Shown piece by piece: positions 28,090 through 60,575 of a DNA stretch of 64,000 nt. The notes below the pieces were generated by a model, which saw nothing but the letters and a program-made list of their open reading frames with translations, did no database searches and had not been told where the DNA came from. This stretch comes from an uncultured Actinomycetes bacterium (GTDB lineage Bacteria; Actinomycetota; Acidimicrobiia; IMCC26256; PALSA-610). Every line of letters begins with the position of its first letter. The first letter of the stretch is position 1. The translations under genes and the position numbers were made by a program. The DNA lies in the NCBI GenBank assembly GCA_963814995.1, contig CAWFFF010000012.1, positions 140-64,139 of the forward strand, in the 5' to 3' direction.

Positions 28090-28749
28090 ATGCGGTTGCT
28101 CGTGGCGCGCTGCTCGGTCACGTACGAGGGCAAGCTCGGGGCCCGGCTCGGTCCGGCGCTGCGGCTCGTGCTCTGCAAGGCCGACGGATCGATATCGATT
28201 CACTCCGACGCGGGCGCGTACAAGCCGCTCAACTGGATGAACCCGCCGTGCACGATCGAGGAGTCGGCCGACGCGATCGTGGCACGCGCTCCGAAGGGCG
28301 AGACGCTCCGCATCGAGCTGCACGAGATCGTGCAGGACACGCGCTACGACCTGGGCGTCGACCCGGGACTCGAGAAGGACGGCGTCGAGGCCGAGCTCCA
28401 ACAGCTCCTCGCCGCGCGTGTCGCCGCGCTCCGCGAAGACCTTCTGCTGATCCGGCGCGAGTATCCGACCGACATCGGCCCCGTCGATCTCCTCTGCCGC
28501 GACGGCGAAGGGCGCACCATCGTCGTCGAGGTCAAGCGCATCGGTGAGATCGCAGGCGTCGACCAGCTCCTGCGGTACCAGGAGCGCCTCGACCGCGACC
28601 CCGGGCTCGCTCCCACCACGGGCATCCTCGTCGCGCAGCTCATCAAGCCCCAGGCGAAGGTCTATGCGGCGAGCAAGGGCGTGGCGTGCATCGAGATCGA
28701 CCTGAACCAACTGCGCGACGGCGTCGACCCCGACCTCACGCTGTTCTAG
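28090..28749 (+). CDS. nucS: Endonuclease NucS (EndoMS, mismatch-specific)
   Basis: Full-length match to the NucS pattern: MRLLVARCSVTYEGKLGA..., YKPLNWM, GPVDLLCRD..G..IVVEVKR, DQLLRY. Confidence 0.9.
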   Translation: MRLLVARCSVTYEGKLGARLGPALRLVLCKADGSISIHSDAGAYKPLNWMNPPCTIEESADAIVARAPKGETLRIELHEIVQDTRYDLGVDPGLEKDGVEAELQQLLAARVAALREDLLLIRREYPTDIGPVDLLCRDGEGRTIVVEVKRIGEIAGVDQLLRYQERLDRDPGLAPTTGILVAQLIKPQAKVYAASKGVACIEIDLNQLRDGVDPDLTLF

Positions 28750-28770
28750 CCACACGAGGCCGTGTGCGCG

Positions 28771-30772
28771 TCACTCGTGCGCGGCGTCGTCGAACTTCGT
28801 GTAGTCGCCGTTGAACACGAGCTTGGTCGCCCCGACCGGCCCGTTGCGGTGCTTGGCGATGATGATCTCGGCCAGACCGCGCTGGTCGGACTCCGGGTTG
28901 TAGTACTCGTCGCGGTAGATGAAGAGCACGACGTCGGCGTCCTGCTCGATGCTGTTGTGCACCACGATGTCGCCGGCAACGAAGTTGTGCGTCCGCGCGA
29001 CCGTCGCGTCGAACACAGGCTCCGTACCCCGGGGCTCGATCGCCACGACCTCGTCCCAGAGCACGTCGCTCGCACCGAGGTCGGCGAGGAACTGATCGGG
29101 AAGCGCTTCGGCGATCCGACCCATCAGCGAACGCGACACGCCTTCTTCGTACACGCGGTGGCGTCCGCCCGCCGATCCGCTCAGCCGCTCCACCAGATCG
29201 TGGGCGCGCAGGGAGCCGTTCACGAGCAGACCCTTGCGCTCGATGTAGTCCCAGACCTCGCGCGGGAACGGAGTCGCGGCGCGGATCGACCTCGGGGCCG
29301 GTGACGCGCGACGACGCGACGTGCGTGCCGACCGTGATGTCGGTGAGATGCACCCACCCGTCGAGGGTGAGGAACGGATGGTTCGCGCTCGCGGTGACGC
29401 GCCGGCCCGACGCAAGCTGCAACTCGAACACCGGCTTCGAACCGCTGCAGAAGACGTGGGCCATCACGCCCGGGACCAGCCGGAGATGCTCGTCGAGCGT
29501 GAGCACCTCGACGTCGCGTGCGCCGGCCTCGTACAGCGCGCCCATCGTGGCGGTCGTGCCGTCGGCGAGCGCGATCTCGGTGCCGGCGACGAGGCAGCCG
29601 GACTCGCGCAGGTCGGCGAGCATCGGCCGCTTGTCGGAGCGGTACTCGAGCTGACGGTTGAGCTGCGAGAGGGTGATCACGGGCGCTTCGAGCTCGCGCG
29701 CCAGGATCTTCAACCCGCGCGAGAGCTCGGAGACCTCGACCTGGCGGTTCTCCGACCGCCCGGGCGTCGACATCAGCTGGAGGTAGTCGACGACGATCAG
29801 CCCGAGGTCGCCGTAGCGGGCCTTGACCCGCCGGGCCTTGGCTCGCATCTCCATGACGGTGCAGTGTGGGTTGTCGTCGATGAAGAACGGGGCTTCGGCG
29901 AGCCGGCCGATCGCCTGGTTGACGCGCGGCCACTCGTGCTCCGAGAGCTTGCCGGTCTGCAGCTTGCGCGACTGCACGCGCGCTTCGGCGGCGAGGAGCC
30001 GCTTGGTGAGCTCGAGGTAACCCATCTCCATCGAGAAGAAGAGCACCGGCTTGCGGCCGACGAGCGCGACGTGTTGCGCCATTCCGAGCGCCAGCGACGT
30101 CTTCCCCTGTCCGGGACGCGCCGCGATGATCGTGAGGGTCGACGGCTGCATGCCGAGCAACAGGGCGTCGAGATCGCGAAAGCCCGTGGCGGTGCCGACG
30201 ATGTCGCCTTGATGGCCGTACAGCGCCTCGAGCTGGTTCATCGTCTCTTCGAGCGCGGGGTACAGCGGCATGAGCGTGTCGGCGACGCGCCGTTCGGCGA
30301 CCTCGAAGATCGCGGCCTCGGCGCGGTCGAGCGTGTCGTCGACCGCGTCCTCCGCCGCGTACGCCATCTCCTGGATGCCGCCCGCGGTCTCGATGAGCCG
30401 CCGTAGCATCGAGAGCTCGCCGACGATCTGGGCGTAGTGCGACGCGTTCGCCGACGCCGGCGTGGAGGCCTGGATCCGCACGAGCGTCTGGCGGCCGCCG
30501 AGTTGTTCGAGCAGCGACGCGCGCCGCAGCTCCTCGGCCACGGTCACCGGATCGACGGGCTCGCCCCGGCTGTGGAGTCCGTACGCGGCCTCGAAGATCG
30601 AGCCGTGCGCGGGCTTGTAGAAGTCGCTCGCCTCGAGGCGAGCCTCCACCGCGGCGGTGATCGCCTCACGGCTCAACATCATGGCCCCGAGCAGCGACTC
30701 CTCCGCTTCGAGGTTGTGCGGCGGGACGCGCGCACCGTTCGCCCGTCGTCGCGCATCCTCGATCGAGACCAT
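28771..30772 (-). CDS. dnaB: Replicative DNA helicase DnaB, interrupted by a mini-intein (plus one frame change inside the intein)
   Basis: N-extein with Walker A ARPGQGKTS, VVDYLQLM and ..LADLRESG. The C-extein SIEQDADVVLFIYRDEYY...AKHRNGP is in the frame of 28771..29415. The frame break lies at a GGGG run near ~29295. Confidence 0.9.
28954..29596 (-). mobile_element. DnaB mini-intein (about 214 aa) at the RESG|C ... HN|SIEQDAD site
   Basis: It starts CLVAGTEIALADG and ends NFVAGDIVVHN followed by S. ASANHPFLTLDGWVHL and SDVLWDEVVAIEPRGTEPVFDATV parallel the Ssp DnaB intein blocks. The 643-nt length (not a multiple of 3) confirms the internal indel. Confidence 0.85.
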
Positions 30773-30878
30773 CTGCCGTTACCGCCCTTCCCCGGAAGTG
30801 GGGACCATTGCATGCCGCAGTTGTGGGGTGGAAGGGGACAAGGCTGTGAATTGCGGGCCCCTCGCGGGGGATATCTCT

Positions 30879-31073
30879 CGATCCACAGCCCTGTGGACAA
30901 TCGCGCAGGGGTGCGCCATCAACGGGACCCGGCAGCCGGCGGGACCCGCGGCCGGAATCGCCGCTGGCAGGCGGGTGACAACGCGCCCGATTGGGCCCGC
31001 GGCCCGCTCTGCCTGGCGTGCGCCGCGCCTGTGCTCACCGCCGTCTCCCTGTGGACAGCGCGCGATGTCCACA
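30879..31073. promoter_or_regulatory. Two palindromic pairs of DnaA-box-like 9-mers upstream of dnaB
   Basis: cgATCCACA (30879-87) faces TGTGGACAA (30892-900, = TTGTCCACA). TGTGGACAg (31050-58) faces aTGTCCACA (31065-73). All lie in the 426-bp rplI-dnaB spacer. Confidence 0.5.
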
Positions 31074-31198
31074 GCGGAACGCCTCCGGGAACAATCGCTC
31101 GTGGAAATGACAACCATGTGATTCTCGCGAACGGGCGCGGTCCGGCTGAGGGACCTCCACCGGCGAGCGGCTCGGGCCCCGGAAGCCTCGCCGCCCGA

Positions 31199-31648
31199 TC
31201 AGTCGGCGGCTTCGACCTCGACGTGGACGGTCGCGACGACGTCGGGGTGCAGACGGATCTGCACGTCGGCGGCGCCGAGCTCCTTCAGCGGCTCGTCGAG
31301 TGCCAGCTTGCGGCGGTCGATCTCGGCCCCGGTCTGGCTCTGTACGGCCTCGGCGATATCGGACGCGGTCACCGAACCGAAGAGTCGGCCTTCCCCGCCC
31401 GCGCGCGCCTTGATCGAGATCGTGCGACCGGTGAACTGCGCCGCCAACGCCTCCGCGTTCTCACGCTCGCGGCGATCGCGCGCTTCACGGTTGCGCCGCA
31501 TCGCGTCGGCCTGCTTCTGGCTTCCGGAGGAAGCCTTCAACGCGAGGCCGCGCGGCACGAGATAGTTGCGGGCGTAGCCATCGGCAACGTCGACGAGGTC
31601 GCCCTTCTTACCGAGGTTGTCGACGTCGTCGCGGAGCACGATCCTCAT
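31199..31648 (-). CDS. rplI: 50S ribosomal protein L9
   Basis: MRIVLRDDVDNLGKKGDLVDVADGYARNYLVPRGLA... The ATG overlaps the rpsR stop (ATGA). Confidence 0.95.
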   Translation of the reverse strand: MRIVLRDDVDNLGKKGDLVDVADGYARNYLVPRGLALKASSGSQKQADAMRRNREARDRRERENAEALAAQFTGRTISIKARAGGEGRLFGSVTASDIAEAVQSQTGAEIDRRKLALDEPLKELGAADVQIRLHPDVVATVHVEVEAAD

Positions 31649-32115
31649 TCGCCGTCACCGCCGCTCGCGCCGCCGTCGGACAACTCGGCCGCGACGTCGT
31701 CGAAACCGGCTTCAACTGCCGCGATCTCATCGGGCGCGGCCCGCTCCTCGGACTCGATCGGGCCCGGGATGTCGCGCAGCTCGCCCTCGCGATCGCCGCG
31801 ATCCCCACGGTCGCCGCGATCGCCGCGATCGCGACGGCCCTTCGAGCGCTGCGTGACCTGCCGGACGCTGTACGGAAGCAGCGCCATCTCACGCGCGACC
31901 CGGATCGCTTTGGCGACGGCGACCTGCTGCTGCTGCGTGTTACCGGTGACGCGGCGCGCGCGCACCTTCGCCCGCTCCGACATGAACCGGCGGAGCAGGT
32001 TGACATCCTTGTAGTCGATCCAGTCGATGCTCTCCGTGATGAGGATCGACGTCTTCTTCTTGATCGGGCGCCGCTCCTTGCCGGGGGGCGCCTTCTTCTC
32101 TCTCCGTTGTGCCAT
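31645..32115 (-). CDS. rpsR: 30S ribosomal protein S18 with ~70-aa acidic/RDRGD-repeat C-terminal extension
   Basis: The core IDYKDVNLLRRFMSERAKVRARRVTGNTQQQQVAVAKAIRVAREMALLPY is followed by RRDRGDRGDRGDRGDREGE... up to residue 156. Confidence 0.9.
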   Translation of the reverse strand: MAQRREKKAPPGKERRPIKKKTSILITESIDWIDYKDVNLLRRFMSERAKVRARRVTGNTQQQQVAVAKAIRVAREMALLPYSVRQVTQRSKGRRDRGDRGDRGDRGDREGELRDIPGPIESEERAAPDEIAAVEAGFDDVAAELSDGGASGGDGE

Positions 32116-32133: not shown

Positions 32134-32607
32134 TTAGAACGGCTCTTCGCCGTAGTCGTCGTATTTGTCGCCACCGGTCGCCGCGGGCGCGGCCGGCGCG
32201 GGACGCCGGGGCGGGCCGCCGCCCCCGTCGCCCGGACCGCTGCGCTCGACCTTGTGCACCTCGGCCGTCGCGAAGCGCAGGCTCGGTGCGACGTCGTCGG
32301 CGACGACTTCGACGATCGAGCGCTTCTCGCCGGCCTCGGTCTCCCAGCTGCGCTGTTCCAGCCGCCCGCTGACGACGACACGCGCGCCCTTGGTGAGCGA
32401 CGCGCCGACGTTCTCGGCGAGCTGGCGCCAGGCGACGACGTTGAAGAAGCTCGTCTGCTCGTCCCACTCCTGGGTCTGCTGGTTCCGCCAGGAACGATTC
32501 ACCGCGACGCCGAAGGTGACCTTCGAGACGCCGCTCGGCGTGTACCGCATCTCCGGGTCGCGGGTGATGTTGCCGGAGATCGTGATGCTGTTGGTATCCG
32601 TTGCCAT
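32134..32607 (-). CDS. ssb: Single-stranded DNA-binding protein
   Basis: OB-fold N-terminus (ITISGNITRDPEMRYTPSG...), Gly/Pro-rich linker and an acidic tip DDYGEEPF. Confidence 0.95.
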   Translation of the reverse strand: MATDTNSITISGNITRDPEMRYTPSGVSKVTFGVAVNRSWRNQQTQEWDEQTSFFNVVAWRQLAENVGASLTKGARVVVSGRLEQRSWETEAGEKRSIVEVVADDVAPSLRFATAEVHKVERSGPGDGGGGPPRRPAPAAPAATGGDKYDDYGEEPF

Positions 32608-32611
32608 GTCG

Positions 32612-32959
32612 CTACTCCCTATGCCTGCCGCCCGCAGCAGCGCCCGCAGCCTTCGGAGGTCCGTAGACCTTCTCCGGGATGCGCAGCACCATGTGGCGGA
32701 TCACTTCATCTGCCAGGGAGAGCGTCCGGGCCAGCTCCTCCATCGCCGGCGGATCGGCACGGGCCTGCAGGACTACGTAGTAGCCGTCGGTCTTGTGCTT
32801 GATCTCGTAGGCGAGGCGCCGCTTGCCCCAGAAGTCGACGTGGCCGCGCTCCGCGCCATTCGACTCGATGAGCTTCAGCCACCGTTCGACTGCAGCCCGG
32901 ATCGTCTCCTCTTCCAGGTCTGCATCGATGATGATCATGACTTCGTACGGACGCGTCAT
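32612..32959 (-). CDS. rpsF: 30S ribosomal protein S6
   Basis: MTRPYEVMIIIDADLEEE...WGKRRLAYEI.. with GAAGGAGG SD upstream. Confidence 0.95.
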   Translation of the reverse strand: MTRPYEVMIIIDADLEEETIRAAVERWLKLIESNGAERGHVDFWGKRRLAYEIKHKTDGYYVVLQARADPPAMEELARTLSLADEVIRHMVLRIPEKVYGPPKAAGAAAGGRHRE

Positions 32960-46721: not shown

Positions 46722-47564
46722 ATGCCCGTTCGCATCGTGACCGACAGTGCGTGCGATCTCCCCGAGTCGATTTGCGCCGAGCTCGGCGTCGAGGTCGTGC
46801 CGCTCACGATCCGGTTCGGCGACCGCGAGTACGTCGACCGCAAAGAGCTCACCACCGACGCGTTCTGGAAGGAGCTCGGCTCCTCGTCGGTGCTCCCCGA
46901 GACGTCGGCCCCTTCGGTCGGCGCGTTCGAGGAGACGTTCCGGCGCCTGAGCGACGAGGGCGCGGACGCGATCGTGTGCATCAACCTGTCGGCCCGCCTG
47001 TCCGCGACGATGCAGTCCGCTCAGGTCGCGGCCAAGGCGCTCGACGGGGAGACGCCGATCGAGATCATCGACTCCCTCAGCGCGTCGATGGGAATCGGCA
47101 ACCTCGTCCTCCATGCCGCGCGACGCGCTCGCGCGACGGAGCCGGGCTCGACGACATCGTCGCGCGAGGTCGAGTCACGGCGCGCCAACCAGCACGTGTT
47201 CGCGGCGCTCGACACGCTCGAGTACCTCAGAAAGGGCGGCCGCATCGGCGGCGCGCAGGCGATGCTCGGTTCGATGCTCTCGATCAAGCCGATCATCAGC
47301 GTGATCGACGGGGCGGTCGAGCCCGCAGGGCGCGTCCGTACGCGGTCGAAAGCACTCCGTTTCCTCGTCGACCAGATCCCGGCGGGCAAGGTGGAGTTGA
47401 TCAGCGTGTTGCATGCGAACGCGCCGGACGTCGACGAATTCGTCGCGATGATCGCGCCCGTCGTGCCCGACGCGGAGGTGACCGTCGGCACGATCGGCCC
47501 CGTCATCGGTGTCCACACCGGACCGCGGGTCATGGGGATCGCGTGGATCAACCGGCCGGAATGA
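46722..47564 (+). CDS. DegV family fatty-acid-binding protein
   Basis: VRIVTDSACDLP...TSAPSVGAFEE...NLSARLSATMQSA... with GAAGGAG SD upstream. Confidence 0.85.
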   Translation: MPVRIVTDSACDLPESICAELGVEVVPLTIRFGDREYVDRKELTTDAFWKELGSSSVLPETSAPSVGAFEETFRRLSDEGADAIVCINLSARLSATMQSAQVAAKALDGETPIEIIDSLSASMGIGNLVLHAARRARATEPGSTTSSREVESRRANQHVFAALDTLEYLRKGGRIGGAQAMLGSMLSIKPIISVIDGAVEPAGRVRTRSKALRFLVDQIPAGKVELISVLHANAPDVDEFVAMIAPVVPDAEVTVGTIGPVIGVHTGPRVMGIAWINRPE

Positions 47565-54798: not shown

Positions 54799-55815
54799 TC
54801 AGGCAGGAAAGACGACGACGCGGCGGCGAGGGTCCTCGCCTTCCGACGTGGTGTCGACGCCATCGACGTCGGCGACCACGTCGTGCACGACCTTGCGGTC
54901 GGCCGCGTTCATCGGTTCGAGCGCCCGTTCCTCGCCCGTCTCCTTGACCTCGCCTGCAACCCGGCGTGCGAACTCCTCGAGGGCCAGGCGGCGGCGCTCG
55001 CGGTATCCGGCCACGTCGACGTGGATCCACGCGCTGTGCCCGCCCGCCGAACGCTGGACGACCGCGCGCACGACCTCCTGCAGGGCCTGTATCGTCACGC
55101 CGCGGGGCCCGACCAGCGCGCCGAGACCATCGCCCTCGATGTGGACCGTCACGTCGTCGCCGTCGATCTCCGTGCGGACCGAGGCGGTGAAGCCCATCGT
55201 CCGGACGAGCTCGTCGGTGAACGTCGCCGCCTGCTCCGCCTGCTCTGCTACCGGCACCGTTTCCACATCGTCCTCCGCTTGCGTCTCGTCGCCCGTGCGT
55301 GCTTTGCGTTCGTCGGTGTCACGGTCGTCCGTAGAGACCGAGGCCGCGGCGCGACCTCCACCACCGCTATTGCCCCGCCCTCGACCTCCGCGCCGGCGCC
55401 GGGCGCCGCTCCCTGGGGCCTTGGGTGCCGACTCTGTCGCCTCACGGGGTGCGTCGGCCCCGGACGCGCCCTCGTCGTCGTTCCTGCTTGCCGCGCCCGA
55501 TCGGTCCGGTGATCGGCCGCCCCGACCGCCCCGTTGTCCACCGCTGCGCCCGCCGCGCCCGCCGCCGCCTTGTCCACCCCGGGAGGACCGCTCGTTCGGG
55601 CGCTTCCCCCGACGTTTCCGGTCGGTCGGCTTCTCCCGGGAGATCGGCTTCACGCGGGCCCGGATTCGGGCGTCGCCGCGAGCGATCCCGAACAAGCCCC
55701 GGCGGGGTTCGTCGACGATCTCGAATTCGAGCTCGTCCTCGACGACTCCGAGCCGGTCGAGTGCGAGCTCCTTGGCGTCGTCGACCGTACGCGCGGTCAC
55801 TTCGATCCAGTCCAC
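54799..55815 (-). CDS. jag: Jag/KhpB RNA-binding protein (Jag_N, KH, R3H) with expanded RGG-rich linker
   Basis: The N-terminal WIEVTARTVDDAKELALDRLGV is Jag_N. The C-terminal ..LVGPRGVTIQALQ.. is KH. ..MNAADRKVVHDVVADVDGVDTTSEGEDPRRRVVV.. is R3H. A ~130-aa linker rich in RGG/GGR separates them. Confidence 0.85.
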   Translation of the reverse strand: MDWIEVTARTVDDAKELALDRLGVVEDELEFEIVDEPRRGLFGIARGDARIRARVKPISREKPTDRKRRGKRPNERSSRGGQGGGGRGGRSGGQRGGRGGRSPDRSGAASRNDDEGASGADAPREATESAPKAPGSGARRRRGGRGRGNSGGGGRAAASVSTDDRDTDERKARTGDETQAEDDVETVPVAEQAEQAATFTDELVRTMGFTASVRTEIDGDDVTVHIEGDGLGALVGPRGVTIQALQEVVRAVVQRSAGGHSAWIHVDVAGYRERRRLALEEFARRVAGEVKETGEERALEPMNAADRKVVHDVVADVDGVDTTSEGEDPRRRVVVFPA

Positions 55816-57824: not shown

Positions 57825-57856
57825 TTCTCCACACGTGTGGACATAGTTGTGGACAA
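57825..57856. promoter_or_regulatory. Three DnaA boxes immediately upstream of dnaA (autoregulatory / left part of origin region)
   Basis: TTCTCCACA (57825-33) and TGTGGACAT (57836-44) form the 14-nt palindrome TCCACACGTGTGGA. TGTGGACAA (57848-56) equals TTGTCCACA. Confidence 0.7.
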
Positions 57857-59271: not shown

Positions 59272-59475
59272 CGCTGTGGACAGCTGCGGACAACGGCGGA
59301 GCGCCCGGGGAGAACGACACGACCGGCCGCGAAGCCCTCAATCGCCTGTGCACTTCTGTGGACGACGGGGTGCGCGCGAATTGGGGCATCCACCGGGGAC
59401 GACGCGTGGTTGTCCACAATCCACAGGGCCTACTACTACAACAACCAAGAATTCAGATTCGAAAGCATCAAGGAG
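59263..59475. other. oriC core: DnaA-box cluster plus AT-rich putative unwinding element between dnaA and dnaN
   Basis: Boxes, given as their TTATCCACA-type complements: TTATCCACT (59263-71), CTGTCCACA (59275-83), TTGTCCGCA (59285-93), TCGTCCACA (59357-65), TTGTCCACA (59410-18) and ATCCACA (59419-25). An AT-rich stretch, TACTACTACAACAACCAAGAATTCAGATTCGAAAGCATC, follows at 59431-69. Confidence 0.75.
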
Positions 59476-59481
59476 GACAGT

Positions 59482-60575
59482 GTGAAGTTCCGGTGCGAGC
59501 GTGACACCCTTGCGGATGCCGTCGCGACCGCGCAGCGGACGGTGGCGAGTCGAAGCGGGGCTCTGCCCGTTCTCCAGGATCTCCGGATCTCGGCGACCGC
59601 CGACGGGTTGGAGCTCATTGGCTCCGACCTCGAGATCACCAACCGTGTGCAGGTCCCGGCCGAGGTCGAGGAGCCTGGGATCGCGGTAGTCCCGAAGCTG
59701 CTCGGCGAGATCGTTCGGAAGTTGGAGCCCGGCCCCGTCACCGTTGCGGTGACGGGCGACGAAGCGGTGATCTCCGCGGGGCGGTTCTCGACGTCGTTGC
59801 GGCTGAAGCCGGCCGAGGACTACCCGCGGCTCGCGTCGAGTGAGGGCCAGGGCGTGAAGGTCGACTCGCACGCCTTCGCCGCCGCGTTGCGCCAGGTCGT
59901 CCGGGCGGCGTCGAAGGACGATCTCCGACCGATCCTCACCGGAGTGCTCATGACGGCACATGCAGGTGGACTCAGGCTCGTCGCCACCGACTCGTACCGG
60001 CTCGCAGTCCGCGACCTGAAGGGCGTCAGCATGCTGACCGAGGGCCAACGGGTCCTCGTCGCAGCCAAGGGTCTGTCCGAGGTGCAACGACTCGCCGGCG
60101 ACGGTGAGATCGACGTGGTCCTGCGCGAGCGCGACGTCGTGTTCCGCACCTCTCGCGCCGAGGTGACCGCCCGCCTGATCGAGGGTGACTTCCCGAACTA
60201 CGAGCAGTTGATCCCGAGTGGTTACCCGAACCGGCTCACCGTCGCCGCGAAGCATTGATGGAGGCGCTCGATCGTGTGCAGATCGTCGGACAGAACCGCG
60301 ACAACGCGGCCGTGCGCATCTCGATGAACGCCGACGGCCTCGAGCTCGCGATGTCGGCGCAGGACATCGGCAACGCGCAGGAGACGCTCGACGCGAAGTT
60401 CGAGGGGACGGAGCTGACCGTTGCGTTCAACCCGGTGTTCCTGCGCGACGGTGTGGACGCGATCGACGCCGACGAGGTTGCGCTCGACACGATCGACCCG
60501 TTGAAGCCGGCCACGTTGCGCGCGGCAGGCGGCGACGACTTCCTCTACCTGCTCATGCCCGTGCGTACTTCGTAA
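59482..60575 (+). CDS. dnaN: DNA polymerase III beta sliding clamp (one frame change as assembled)
   Basis: (M)KFRCERDTLADAVATAQR... with GTG 59482 five nt after AAGGAGG. ..LIPSGYPNRLTVAA then shifts (a missing G near ~60249) into ..EALMEALDRVQIV...LYLLMPVR of frame 60255..60575. Confidence 0.9.

Follow-up and report, generated by a model that had tools for sequence, protein, structure and literature searches.

Conserved DnaA box pairs between rplI and dnaB suggest initiator control of the replicative helicase gene in uncultivated Acidimicrobiia

Introduction

Why would a noncoding spacer in front of the replicative helicase gene carry motifs that resemble DnaA boxes, about 27 kb away from the origin of replication? 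This question is raised by a 64-kb stretch of DNA from an uncultured member of the Acidimicrobiia (64,000 nucleotides in full, here called the window). A preliminary description, made from the letters of the window, had noted inverted pairs of such motifs in the spacer between rplI and dnaB. It proposed that they serve DnaA-dependent control of dnaB or, alternatively, form a DnaA-titrating or auxiliary cluster. We followed up this proposal by counting the motifs throughout the window, by comparing the spacer with the window's own origin region and with dnaB loci of related genomes, and by weighing the result against DnaA sites described in other bacteria.

Results

Organization of the rplI-dnaB spacer

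The spacer is 426 bp long (30773-31198), and the genes on both of its sides lie on the minus strand. Downstream is dnaB (28736-30772), the presumed regulated gene, which encodes a replicative helicase of 678 aa with a mini-intein. The upstream neighbor of dnaB is rplI (31199-31648), which encodes ribosomal protein L9. Further minus-strand genes are rpsR (within 31645-32115), ssb (32134-32607), and rpsF (32612-32959).

The preliminary description saw no convincing open reading frame (ORF) in the spacer, and we came to the same view, as the codon-position GC of the spacer is flat, without coding signal, and its ORFs gave no Pfam match. A 112-aa ORF (30779-31117) was discarded on these two grounds. 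Another ORF, of 46 aa (30779-30919, minus strand), starts with ATGGCGCAC (30919), crosses the box region, and stops 6 nt short of the dnaB start. It is also open in the relatives L001 to L003. Similar ORFs of 46 to 50 codons in L048, L063, L069, and L079 stop near the dnaB start and begin 6 to 8 nt past a -10 hexamer, resembling leaderless upstream ORFs. We judged the 46-aa ORF to be noncoding because aligned substitutions are not biased toward the third codon position (alignment read by eye) and also because frames of this length arise by chance at 70% GC.

Within the spacer, one perfect DnaA box, two boxes matching at 8/9 positions, and one matching at 7/9 positions make up two inverted pairs. 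The perfect box of the proximal pair is the 9-mer TTGTCCACA (30892-30900, minus strand). Its partner, CGATCCACA (30879-30887, plus strand), is placed tail to tail with it across a 4-bp gap, so that the 9-mer starts are 13 bp apart. The distal pair consists of two 8/9 boxes, CTGTCCACA (31050-31058, minus strand) and ATGTCCACA (31065-31073, plus strand), which are arranged head to head with a 6-bp gap of variable sequence. The preliminary description had read the proximal pair as ATCCACA (30881-30887), gccc, and TGTGGACAA (30892-30900) and the distal pair as TGTGGACA (31050-31057), gcgcgcga, and TGTCCACA (31066-31073); letters and positions are exact in both cases. Both inverted pairs are thus present as described, except that the left arm of the proximal pair reaches only 7/9 as a box.

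Three weaker box-like 9-mers lie in tandem on the minus strand at 30822-30853 and are, from their sequence, candidate DnaA boxes. They read CAATTCACA (30845-30853), TTGTCCCCT (30833-30841), and CACCCCACA (30822-30830), with gaps of 3 and 2 bp between them, and the block is kept class-wide as ..TCACAGGGTTGTyCCCT..ATCCCCAGG. Between the two box pairs is a 26-nt block (CACCCGCCTGCCAGCGGCGATTCCGG, 30952-30977, minus strand) that hardly varies within the near clade and is confined to it; no second copy was found in the window. We also considered a second origin. An AT-rich unwinding element and DnaA-trio-like trinucleotide repeats were not found beside the spacer boxes, and this possibility was excluded because the GC content of the spacer is about 0.70 throughout, with just two TA dinucleotides.

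The spacer shares its motif with the origin region

Two other places in the window served as references. Upstream of dnaA, three DnaA boxes (57825-57856) lie 15 to 46 bp before the ATG (57871) in the layout TTCTCCACA-cg-TGTGGACAT-agt-TGTGGACAA. The palindrome TCCACAcgTGTGGA, which had been reported ahead of dnaA, is present at 57828-57841. The second reference is the 212-bp dnaA-dnaN spacer (59272-59483), in which five boxes (59275-59425) precede GGGCC, the TAC/AAC trinucleotide run TACTACTACAACAAC, and an AT-rich stretch. This spacer is the likely oriC, since it combines boxes, GGGCC, trinucleotide run, and AT-rich stretch as origins do. Its section at 59410-59470 begins with two overlapping boxes, TTGTCCACAATCCACA, ahead of GGGCC, TACTACTACAACAAC, and the AT-rich stretch, a layout that we take to be the box, GC-cluster, and trinucleotide-repeat order of DnaA-trio unwinding modules. 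Next to the likely oriC, dnaN is divided between two ORFs, one with the N-terminal and central domains (59484-60258) and one with the C-terminal domain (60255-60575). The split (window positions 60250-60260) resembles a 1-nt frameshift and would thus stem either from a mistake in the assembly or from genuine disruption.

Measured from the rplI-dnaB spacer, the dnaA-upstream boxes are 26.8 kb away and the dnaA-dnaN spacer 28.2 kb, in agreement with the earlier estimate of about 27 kb from oriC. The motif of the rplI-dnaB spacer is the same 9-mer as in the boxes of the window's own oriC and dnaA promoter. In Mycobacterium tuberculosis and Streptomyces, the high-affinity box is likewise TTGTCCACA (PMC4285127).

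The window also encodes a full-length, canonical DnaA (E of 2.8e-134 to Bacillus subtilis DnaA 8btg). Domain IV of this protein matches the box-binding domains of M. tuberculosis (3pvp; 2.5e-22) and Escherichia coli (1j1v; 1.6e-15). It retains an 11-residue segment that is presumably the base-contacting part, as in structure 1J1V.

To place the spacer motifs against the background of the window, we replaced the by-eye reading of the preliminary description with an exhaustive scan. The 8-mer TGTGGACA/TGTCCACA has eight matches in the 64 kb, against 0.97 expected, and none of 100 shuffles reached eight. According to the preliminary description, this 8-mer was confined to three noncoding places (upstream of dnaA, the dnaA-dnaN spacer, and the rplI-dnaB spacer). 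That holds for seven of the eight matches; the remaining one (47510-47517) is in coding sequence, at the 3' end of a DegV-family gene. For TTGTCCACA, a search that tolerated at most one mismatch gave 14 matches in the window versus 5.24 expected. The rplI-dnaB spacer accounts for three of these matches, the region upstream of dnaA for another three, and the dnaA-dnaN spacer for four. Of the remaining ones, two fall inside jag/khpB (55534 and 55570), one in the DegV gene (47509), and one at position 263. At the background rate, the rplI-dnaB spacer would be expected to contain 0.027 matches, and the probability of at least three is about 3e-6.

The two 9-mers in jag/khpB (TTGTCCACC; 55534-55542 and 55570-55578) are 36 bp apart and antisense, in a low-complexity linker. 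The 9-mer in the DegV gene (GTGTCCACA; 47509-47517) coincides with the 3' end of that gene and the start of a sigma-70-like ORF. The matches in these two genes are probably due to chance.

Boxes upstream of dnaB in related genomes

Next to the window, we compared 80 dnaB loci from species genomes (58 to 92% DnaB identity), which with the window make up the first 81 sequences, and we added two metagenomic loci and eight close relatives (78 to 97% DnaB identity) for a total of 91; counts of these loci are not phylogenetically independent. In a set of 185,579 species genomes, the best DnaB relatives are uncultivated Actinomycetota/Acidimicrobiia metagenome-assembled genomes with at most 92% identity. 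In a wider protein collection, the matches listed include DnaB relatives at 75 to 98% identity, with Acidimicrobiia labels at up to 98%; this collection served to fill in the near clade. A metagenome scan with the flanking 17-mer CGAGAGATATCCCCCGC yielded 45 stretches; just two of them, L106 and L111, were homologous.

Over the 81 sequences, the density of the TCCACA core is 7.05 per kb in the interval from -350 to -40 of dnaB and 0.279 per kb elsewhere, a 25-fold enrichment. At least one core is present in this interval in 69 of the 81 loci, and at least two are present in 54. With their flanks, the upstream cores yield the consensus TT[G/A]TCCACAG, whereas cores elsewhere in the 81 sequences lack such flanks. 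Perfect TT[A/G]TCCACA boxes number 43 in the 25.8 kb upstream of dnaB versus 3 in 494 kb elsewhere, an enrichment of about 275-fold that refers to the 300 bp upstream of dnaB in related Acidimicrobiia loci. Boxes with at most one mismatch are 43-fold enriched upstream of dnaB; 15 of the 81 loci have none there, even with the mismatch allowed.

The enrichment belongs to dnaB and not to the neighboring gene. In 18 loci, rplI is absent or more than 600 bp away, and in 16 of these the boxes are still found at -300 to -75 of dnaB. Locus L131 has eight cores upstream of dnaB, though its upstream gene encodes inositol-1-phosphate synthase. Since the boxes stay at dnaB when rplI is no longer the neighbor, they track dnaB.

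The preliminary description had suggested looking for the pairs in related genomes, and there they are found: both are conserved in the near clade, and boxes are enriched upstream of dnaB class-wide. In the window and in L001 to L003, L106, L111, L126, L127, L129, and L130 (88 to 97% DnaB identity where known), both pairs are kept at constant spacing, and the rest of the spacer is scrambled. In the near clade, the distal box at 31050-31058 reads [A/C]TGTCCACA or ATATCCACA, with ATACCCACA in L003.

The distances between boxes have distinct peaks, at 11 to 12, 20, and 31 to 32 bp for tandem boxes, at 18 bp for head-to-head boxes, and at 13 bp for tail-to-tail boxes. As read from these sequence intervals, the peaks reflect helical phasing. 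The commonest lag between boxes of the same orientation is 11 to 12 bp, and the tail-to-tail offset of 13 bp was seen 20 times among relatives. The emphasis that the preliminary description had put on palindromes was not upheld, as they are not essential: tandem pairs are as frequent as inverted pairs among relatives. Of the 49 loci with at least two boxes, 24 lack an inverted pair within 40 bp, and tandem pairs are the sole type in 12.

A candidate promoter at the proximal pair

A scan of the spacer for consensus sigma-70 promoters gave no match. We did, however, observe a putative -10 hexamer of the dnaB promoter, GATTGT (30897-30902, minus strand), with a putative -26-like element, TGGCGCAC (30911-30918, minus strand), 8 nt upstream of it. 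Relatives have TGTCGCAC or TGTCACAC at the latter position. The perfect DnaA box overlaps the last 4 nt of the hexamer. All 12 near-clade sequences have the first base of the perfect box at +2 of the -10 hexamer. In the window, its partner in the proximal pair sits at the predicted transcription start. In many of the more distant relatives, boxes are at +7 to +80 from the hexamer, at times with another box about 43 bp upstream of it. A second, weaker candidate is located just upstream of the distal pair (31091-31112, minus strand) and consists of TGTCATTT (31105-31112), N8, and GATTGT (31091-31096). In the near clade, TGTCATTT is partly conserved but its -10 hexamer is not.

The general pattern of these elements, TG[T/G]C..A[C/G]-N8-nAnnnT, is present in the sense direction in 47 of the 91 loci; in the antisense direction, these regions upstream of dnaB contain 2 matches. 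It is 12-fold denser upstream of dnaB than over the rest of the loci.

The arrangement resembles that of PafBC (RecA-NDp) hybrid promoters, which follow tGTCgg-N10-tAnnnT, have no -35 element, and conserve the GTC strictly (PMC8635444). Mycobacterial dnaB itself is damage-inducible and partly PafBC-dependent (PMC8151990). Both TGGCGCAC-N8-GATTGT and TGTCATTT-N8-GATTGT in the window match the geometry of this type; as in the promoters of Mueller et al. (2021), a -35 element is absent and the upstream element lies 8 to 10 nt before an nAnnnT hexamer. The distal element also carries the GTC triplet. The proximal element differs from the PafBC promoters in having GGC, as do many close relatives; GTC is found at this position in L126, L130, L004, L005, and most distant relatives. 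Because GGC stands where PafBC promoters have an invariant GTC, the assignment of the proximal promoter is tentative. What would be new under this assignment is an overlap between the perfect DnaA box and the -10 hexamer of a promoter-like element that is conserved and has PafBC-type (-26/-10) geometry.

Sister clades have a different motif in the corresponding place. In eight of their loci, a perfect LexA box (GAAC-N4-GTTC) begins one base past a TAnnnT -10 hexamer upstream of dnaB. Such LexA/SOS boxes are located 90 to 240 bp upstream of dnaB in L042, L046, L051, L056 to L059, L066, and others, and the region that they occupy is the DnaA-box region of the window's clade. For the window's own spacer, a LexA box was rejected, as the only candidate (31089-31100) has one mismatch, is at chance level, and is unconserved.

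Discussion

An Acidimicrobiia counterpart of a known DnaA site

The site in the window is the Acidimicrobiia counterpart of an established actinobacterial DnaA site, because Hicks et al. (2020) mapped DnaA to the mycobacterial rplI-dnaB spacer (PMC7738170). In M. tuberculosis, the top DnaA windows in their in vitro IDAP-seq data are 195 to 220 nt upstream of dnaB, and binding in the rplI-dnaB spacer (inside annotated Rv0057) reached 35 to 88x versus 8 to 36x at oriC (PMC7738170). In Mycobacterium smegmatis, the top peak of myc-DnaA ChIP-seq was dnaB-rplI, with 225x versus 44x at oriC (PMC7738170). The M. tuberculosis DnaA variant I282T binds the dnaB-upstream site more weakly, and dnaB is under-expressed (PMC7738170). 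Strong DnaA sites outside oriC are very few, and the mycobacterial site is among them.

Compared by position, the mycobacterial and window sites are alike in occupying the same rplI-dnaB spacer within the same phylum, with boxes 100 to 300 bp upstream of dnaB. Each spacer also has an annotated or open frame, Rv0057 and the 112-aa ORF, respectively, both of them probably spurious. The sites differ in class (Actinomycetes versus Acidimicrobiia) and in that DnaA binding was demonstrated in mycobacteria and is predicted for the window. Hicks et al. also point out a parallel in Caulobacter, where dnaB is under DnaA control (PMC7738170). As far as the Caulobacter crescentus DnaA regulon is represented there (Hottes et al. 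2005, via PMC7738170), the initiator controls the replicative helicase gene in this case too, but the phylum is unrelated, the box consensus is TGATCCACA, and DnaA is reported as an activator.

We consider it likely that the spacer is a regulatory region of dnaB, in which DnaA binds both box pairs through its domain IV and modulates dnaB. The tie between the boxes and dnaB made in the preliminary description finds support in the motif of the window's own oriC, in the canonical domain IV, in the enrichment over 91 loci, and in the linkage to dnaB. Its proposal of DnaA-dependent control is strengthened by analogy, through the binding of mycobacterial DnaA at the orthologous spacer (PMC7738170).

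Mechanistically, DnaA would occupy the proximal (30879-30900) and distal (31050-31073) pairs by means of domain IV. The proximal pair would cover the -10 hexamer and the predicted start of the -35-less promoter TGGCGCAC-N8-GATTGT, with the distal pair about 175 bp farther upstream. DnaA may also extend to the weak boxes that follow in phase downstream of the proximal pair (30822-30853). In this manner, DnaA occupancy would set dnaB transcription and couple the supply of helicase to the level or activity of the initiator. Regarding the sign of regulation, two lines of evidence point in different directions. In the window's clade, the boxes cover the putative -10 hexamer and the predicted start site, a placement that suggests repression through exclusion of RNA polymerase, whereas the under-expression of dnaB in the I282T mutant, the sole genetic data and from M. 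tuberculosis, suggests a positive effect.

A more far-reaching idea, which we regard as rather unlikely, is that the dnaB promoter of Actinomycetota is an ancient integration point of two signals, initiator status and DNA damage, and in addition the main oriC-proximal DnaA sink of the phylum. The promoter would then be of the -35-less, damage-responsive PafBC type, and an operator slot at or just past its -10 hexamer would hold DnaA boxes in the window's clade and, in sister clades, a LexA box. The same cluster would also time initiation as a DnaA sink.

Box pairs outside the origin have also been linked to regulation in E. coli, where the DnaA regulon in vivo requires a tandem box pair with a 2- to 3-bp gap (Stringer et al. 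2024, PMC11317965). The tandem lag of 11 to 12 bp among the relatives of the window corresponds to this gap. The strong pairs of the window itself differ from the E. coli arrangement, as they are inverted (tail to tail with a 4-bp gap and head to head with a 6-bp gap).

Alternative explanations

The cluster could instead be primarily an oriC-near DnaA sink or timing element like datA or the B. subtilis clusters, with any effect on dnaB being secondary, a possibility compatible with dnaB control. Such a cluster would titrate DnaA, or inactivate it, shortly after the cluster's own replication. The datA and DARS loci of E. coli are similar in being DnaA-binding box clusters outside the origin. 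With IHF or Fis as partners, they affect the nucleotide state of DnaA; they do not serve as promoters for replication genes. The B. subtilis clusters share with the window an intergenic location close to oriC (Ishikawa 2007, PMC2533591; Okumura 2012, PMC3245932), and they both regulate adjacent genes and jointly restrain initiation (PMC2533591, PMC3245932). Deletion of the six clusters outside oriC led to early initiation, and the rescue was governed by gene dosage near oriC (PMC3245932). No helicase gene appears in the names of these six (gcp-ydiF, yqeG-sda, ywlC-ywlB, ywcI-vpr, yydA-yycS, and thdF-jag). A role as a sink would suit the distance of 27 to 28 kb between the window's cluster and oriC, and the mycobacterial rplI-dnaB spacer binds more DnaA than oriC does. 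However, the boxes of the window and its relatives are placed tightly relative to dnaB (-300 to -75) and to the promoter-like element, which would be unnecessary for a pure sink. They also move with dnaB when the synteny changes, and just three to four boxes in the cluster are good ones. Overall, we find it unlikely that titration is the primary role.

Recognition of the palindromes by another, dimeric transcription factor would make their likeness to DnaA boxes a coincidence. Dimeric regulators typically have palindromic sites or sites in tandem at 11 bp. One such factor could be the OmpR-type regulator MtrA, which has a related site in mycobacteria (GTCACAGCG) and is among the oriC-binding proteins of M. 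tuberculosis (PMC4285127). The class-wide consensus, however, is exactly TT[A/G]TCCACA and not GTCACA, and the window's own oriC is marked by the same 9-mer. The variable orientation and spacing of the sites better suit a monomeric, oligomerizing box reader, and the orthologous mycobacterial site is bound by DnaA itself. We therefore consider a coincidental likeness to be very improbable.

The probability is lower still that the inverted repeats function as RNA hairpins, in an rplI-dnaB transcript or in the dnaB 5' leader, with a part in processing, stability, or attenuation. Both pairs could form stems of 7 to 8 bp. In the distal pair, one C:G to U:A double change separates the window from L001 and L002 (with G:U in L003), and the RNA of the spacer folds slightly better than shuffled sequences do (z = -2.1). 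Yet the distal arms read TGTGGACA[G/T] and ATATCCACA in L129, L130, L126, and L127, which results in a C:A mismatch and leaves both arms valid as boxes, in which either G or A is accepted at position 3. In a four-sequence alignment, 13 of the 15 stem pairs are invariant, and the covariation score was matched by 131 of 500 shuffles. The arms conserve the box sequence beyond mere complementarity. Rfam gave no matches for the whole window at the gathering score or for the spacer at an E of <=1, and no terminator-like site was found in a terminator scan of the spacer. The hairpin reading is also at odds with the multibox loci described above that have no inverted pair nearby or only tandem pairs; a mixture of tandem and inverted pairs spaced by helical turns points to a DNA-binding protein rather than to an RNA hairpin. 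With a weak fold score, insignificant covariation, and arms that are noncomplementary in four close relatives, we rejected this reading.

Chance occurrence of the motifs in a GC-rich spacer, for which only the small number of sites speaks, has a practically negligible probability, as it is refuted by the enrichment and conservation seen in the window counts, the 8-mer shuffles, and the scans of 81 sequences.

Implications of the proposed DnaA control of dnaB

With these boxes, a DnaA site proven experimentally in mycobacteria would extend to an uncultivated, deep-branching class within that phylum. This extension to Acidimicrobiia suggests that the link between the initiator and the helicase gene is old and under selection. 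The locus reveals no new kind of element. The relatives do provide a catalogue of tolerated box geometries (tandem at 11 to 12 bp, head to head at 18 bp, and tail to tail at 13 bp), which, together with the box on the -10 hexamer, makes testable predictions for DnaA control of dnaB.

Two observations concern the dnaB gene itself. Its product owes its length of 678 aa to an insertion past residue ~400 that matches the intein splicing domain below the Pfam cutoff, hence the designation mini-intein. The insertion is common to most close relatives (DnaB of about 666 aa), and a few relatives have a DnaB of about 450 to 470 aa without the intein domain. At its other end, dnaB is convergent with nucS (28090-28749, plus strand), which encodes the endonuclease NucS, and the 3' ends of the two genes overlap by 14 bp.
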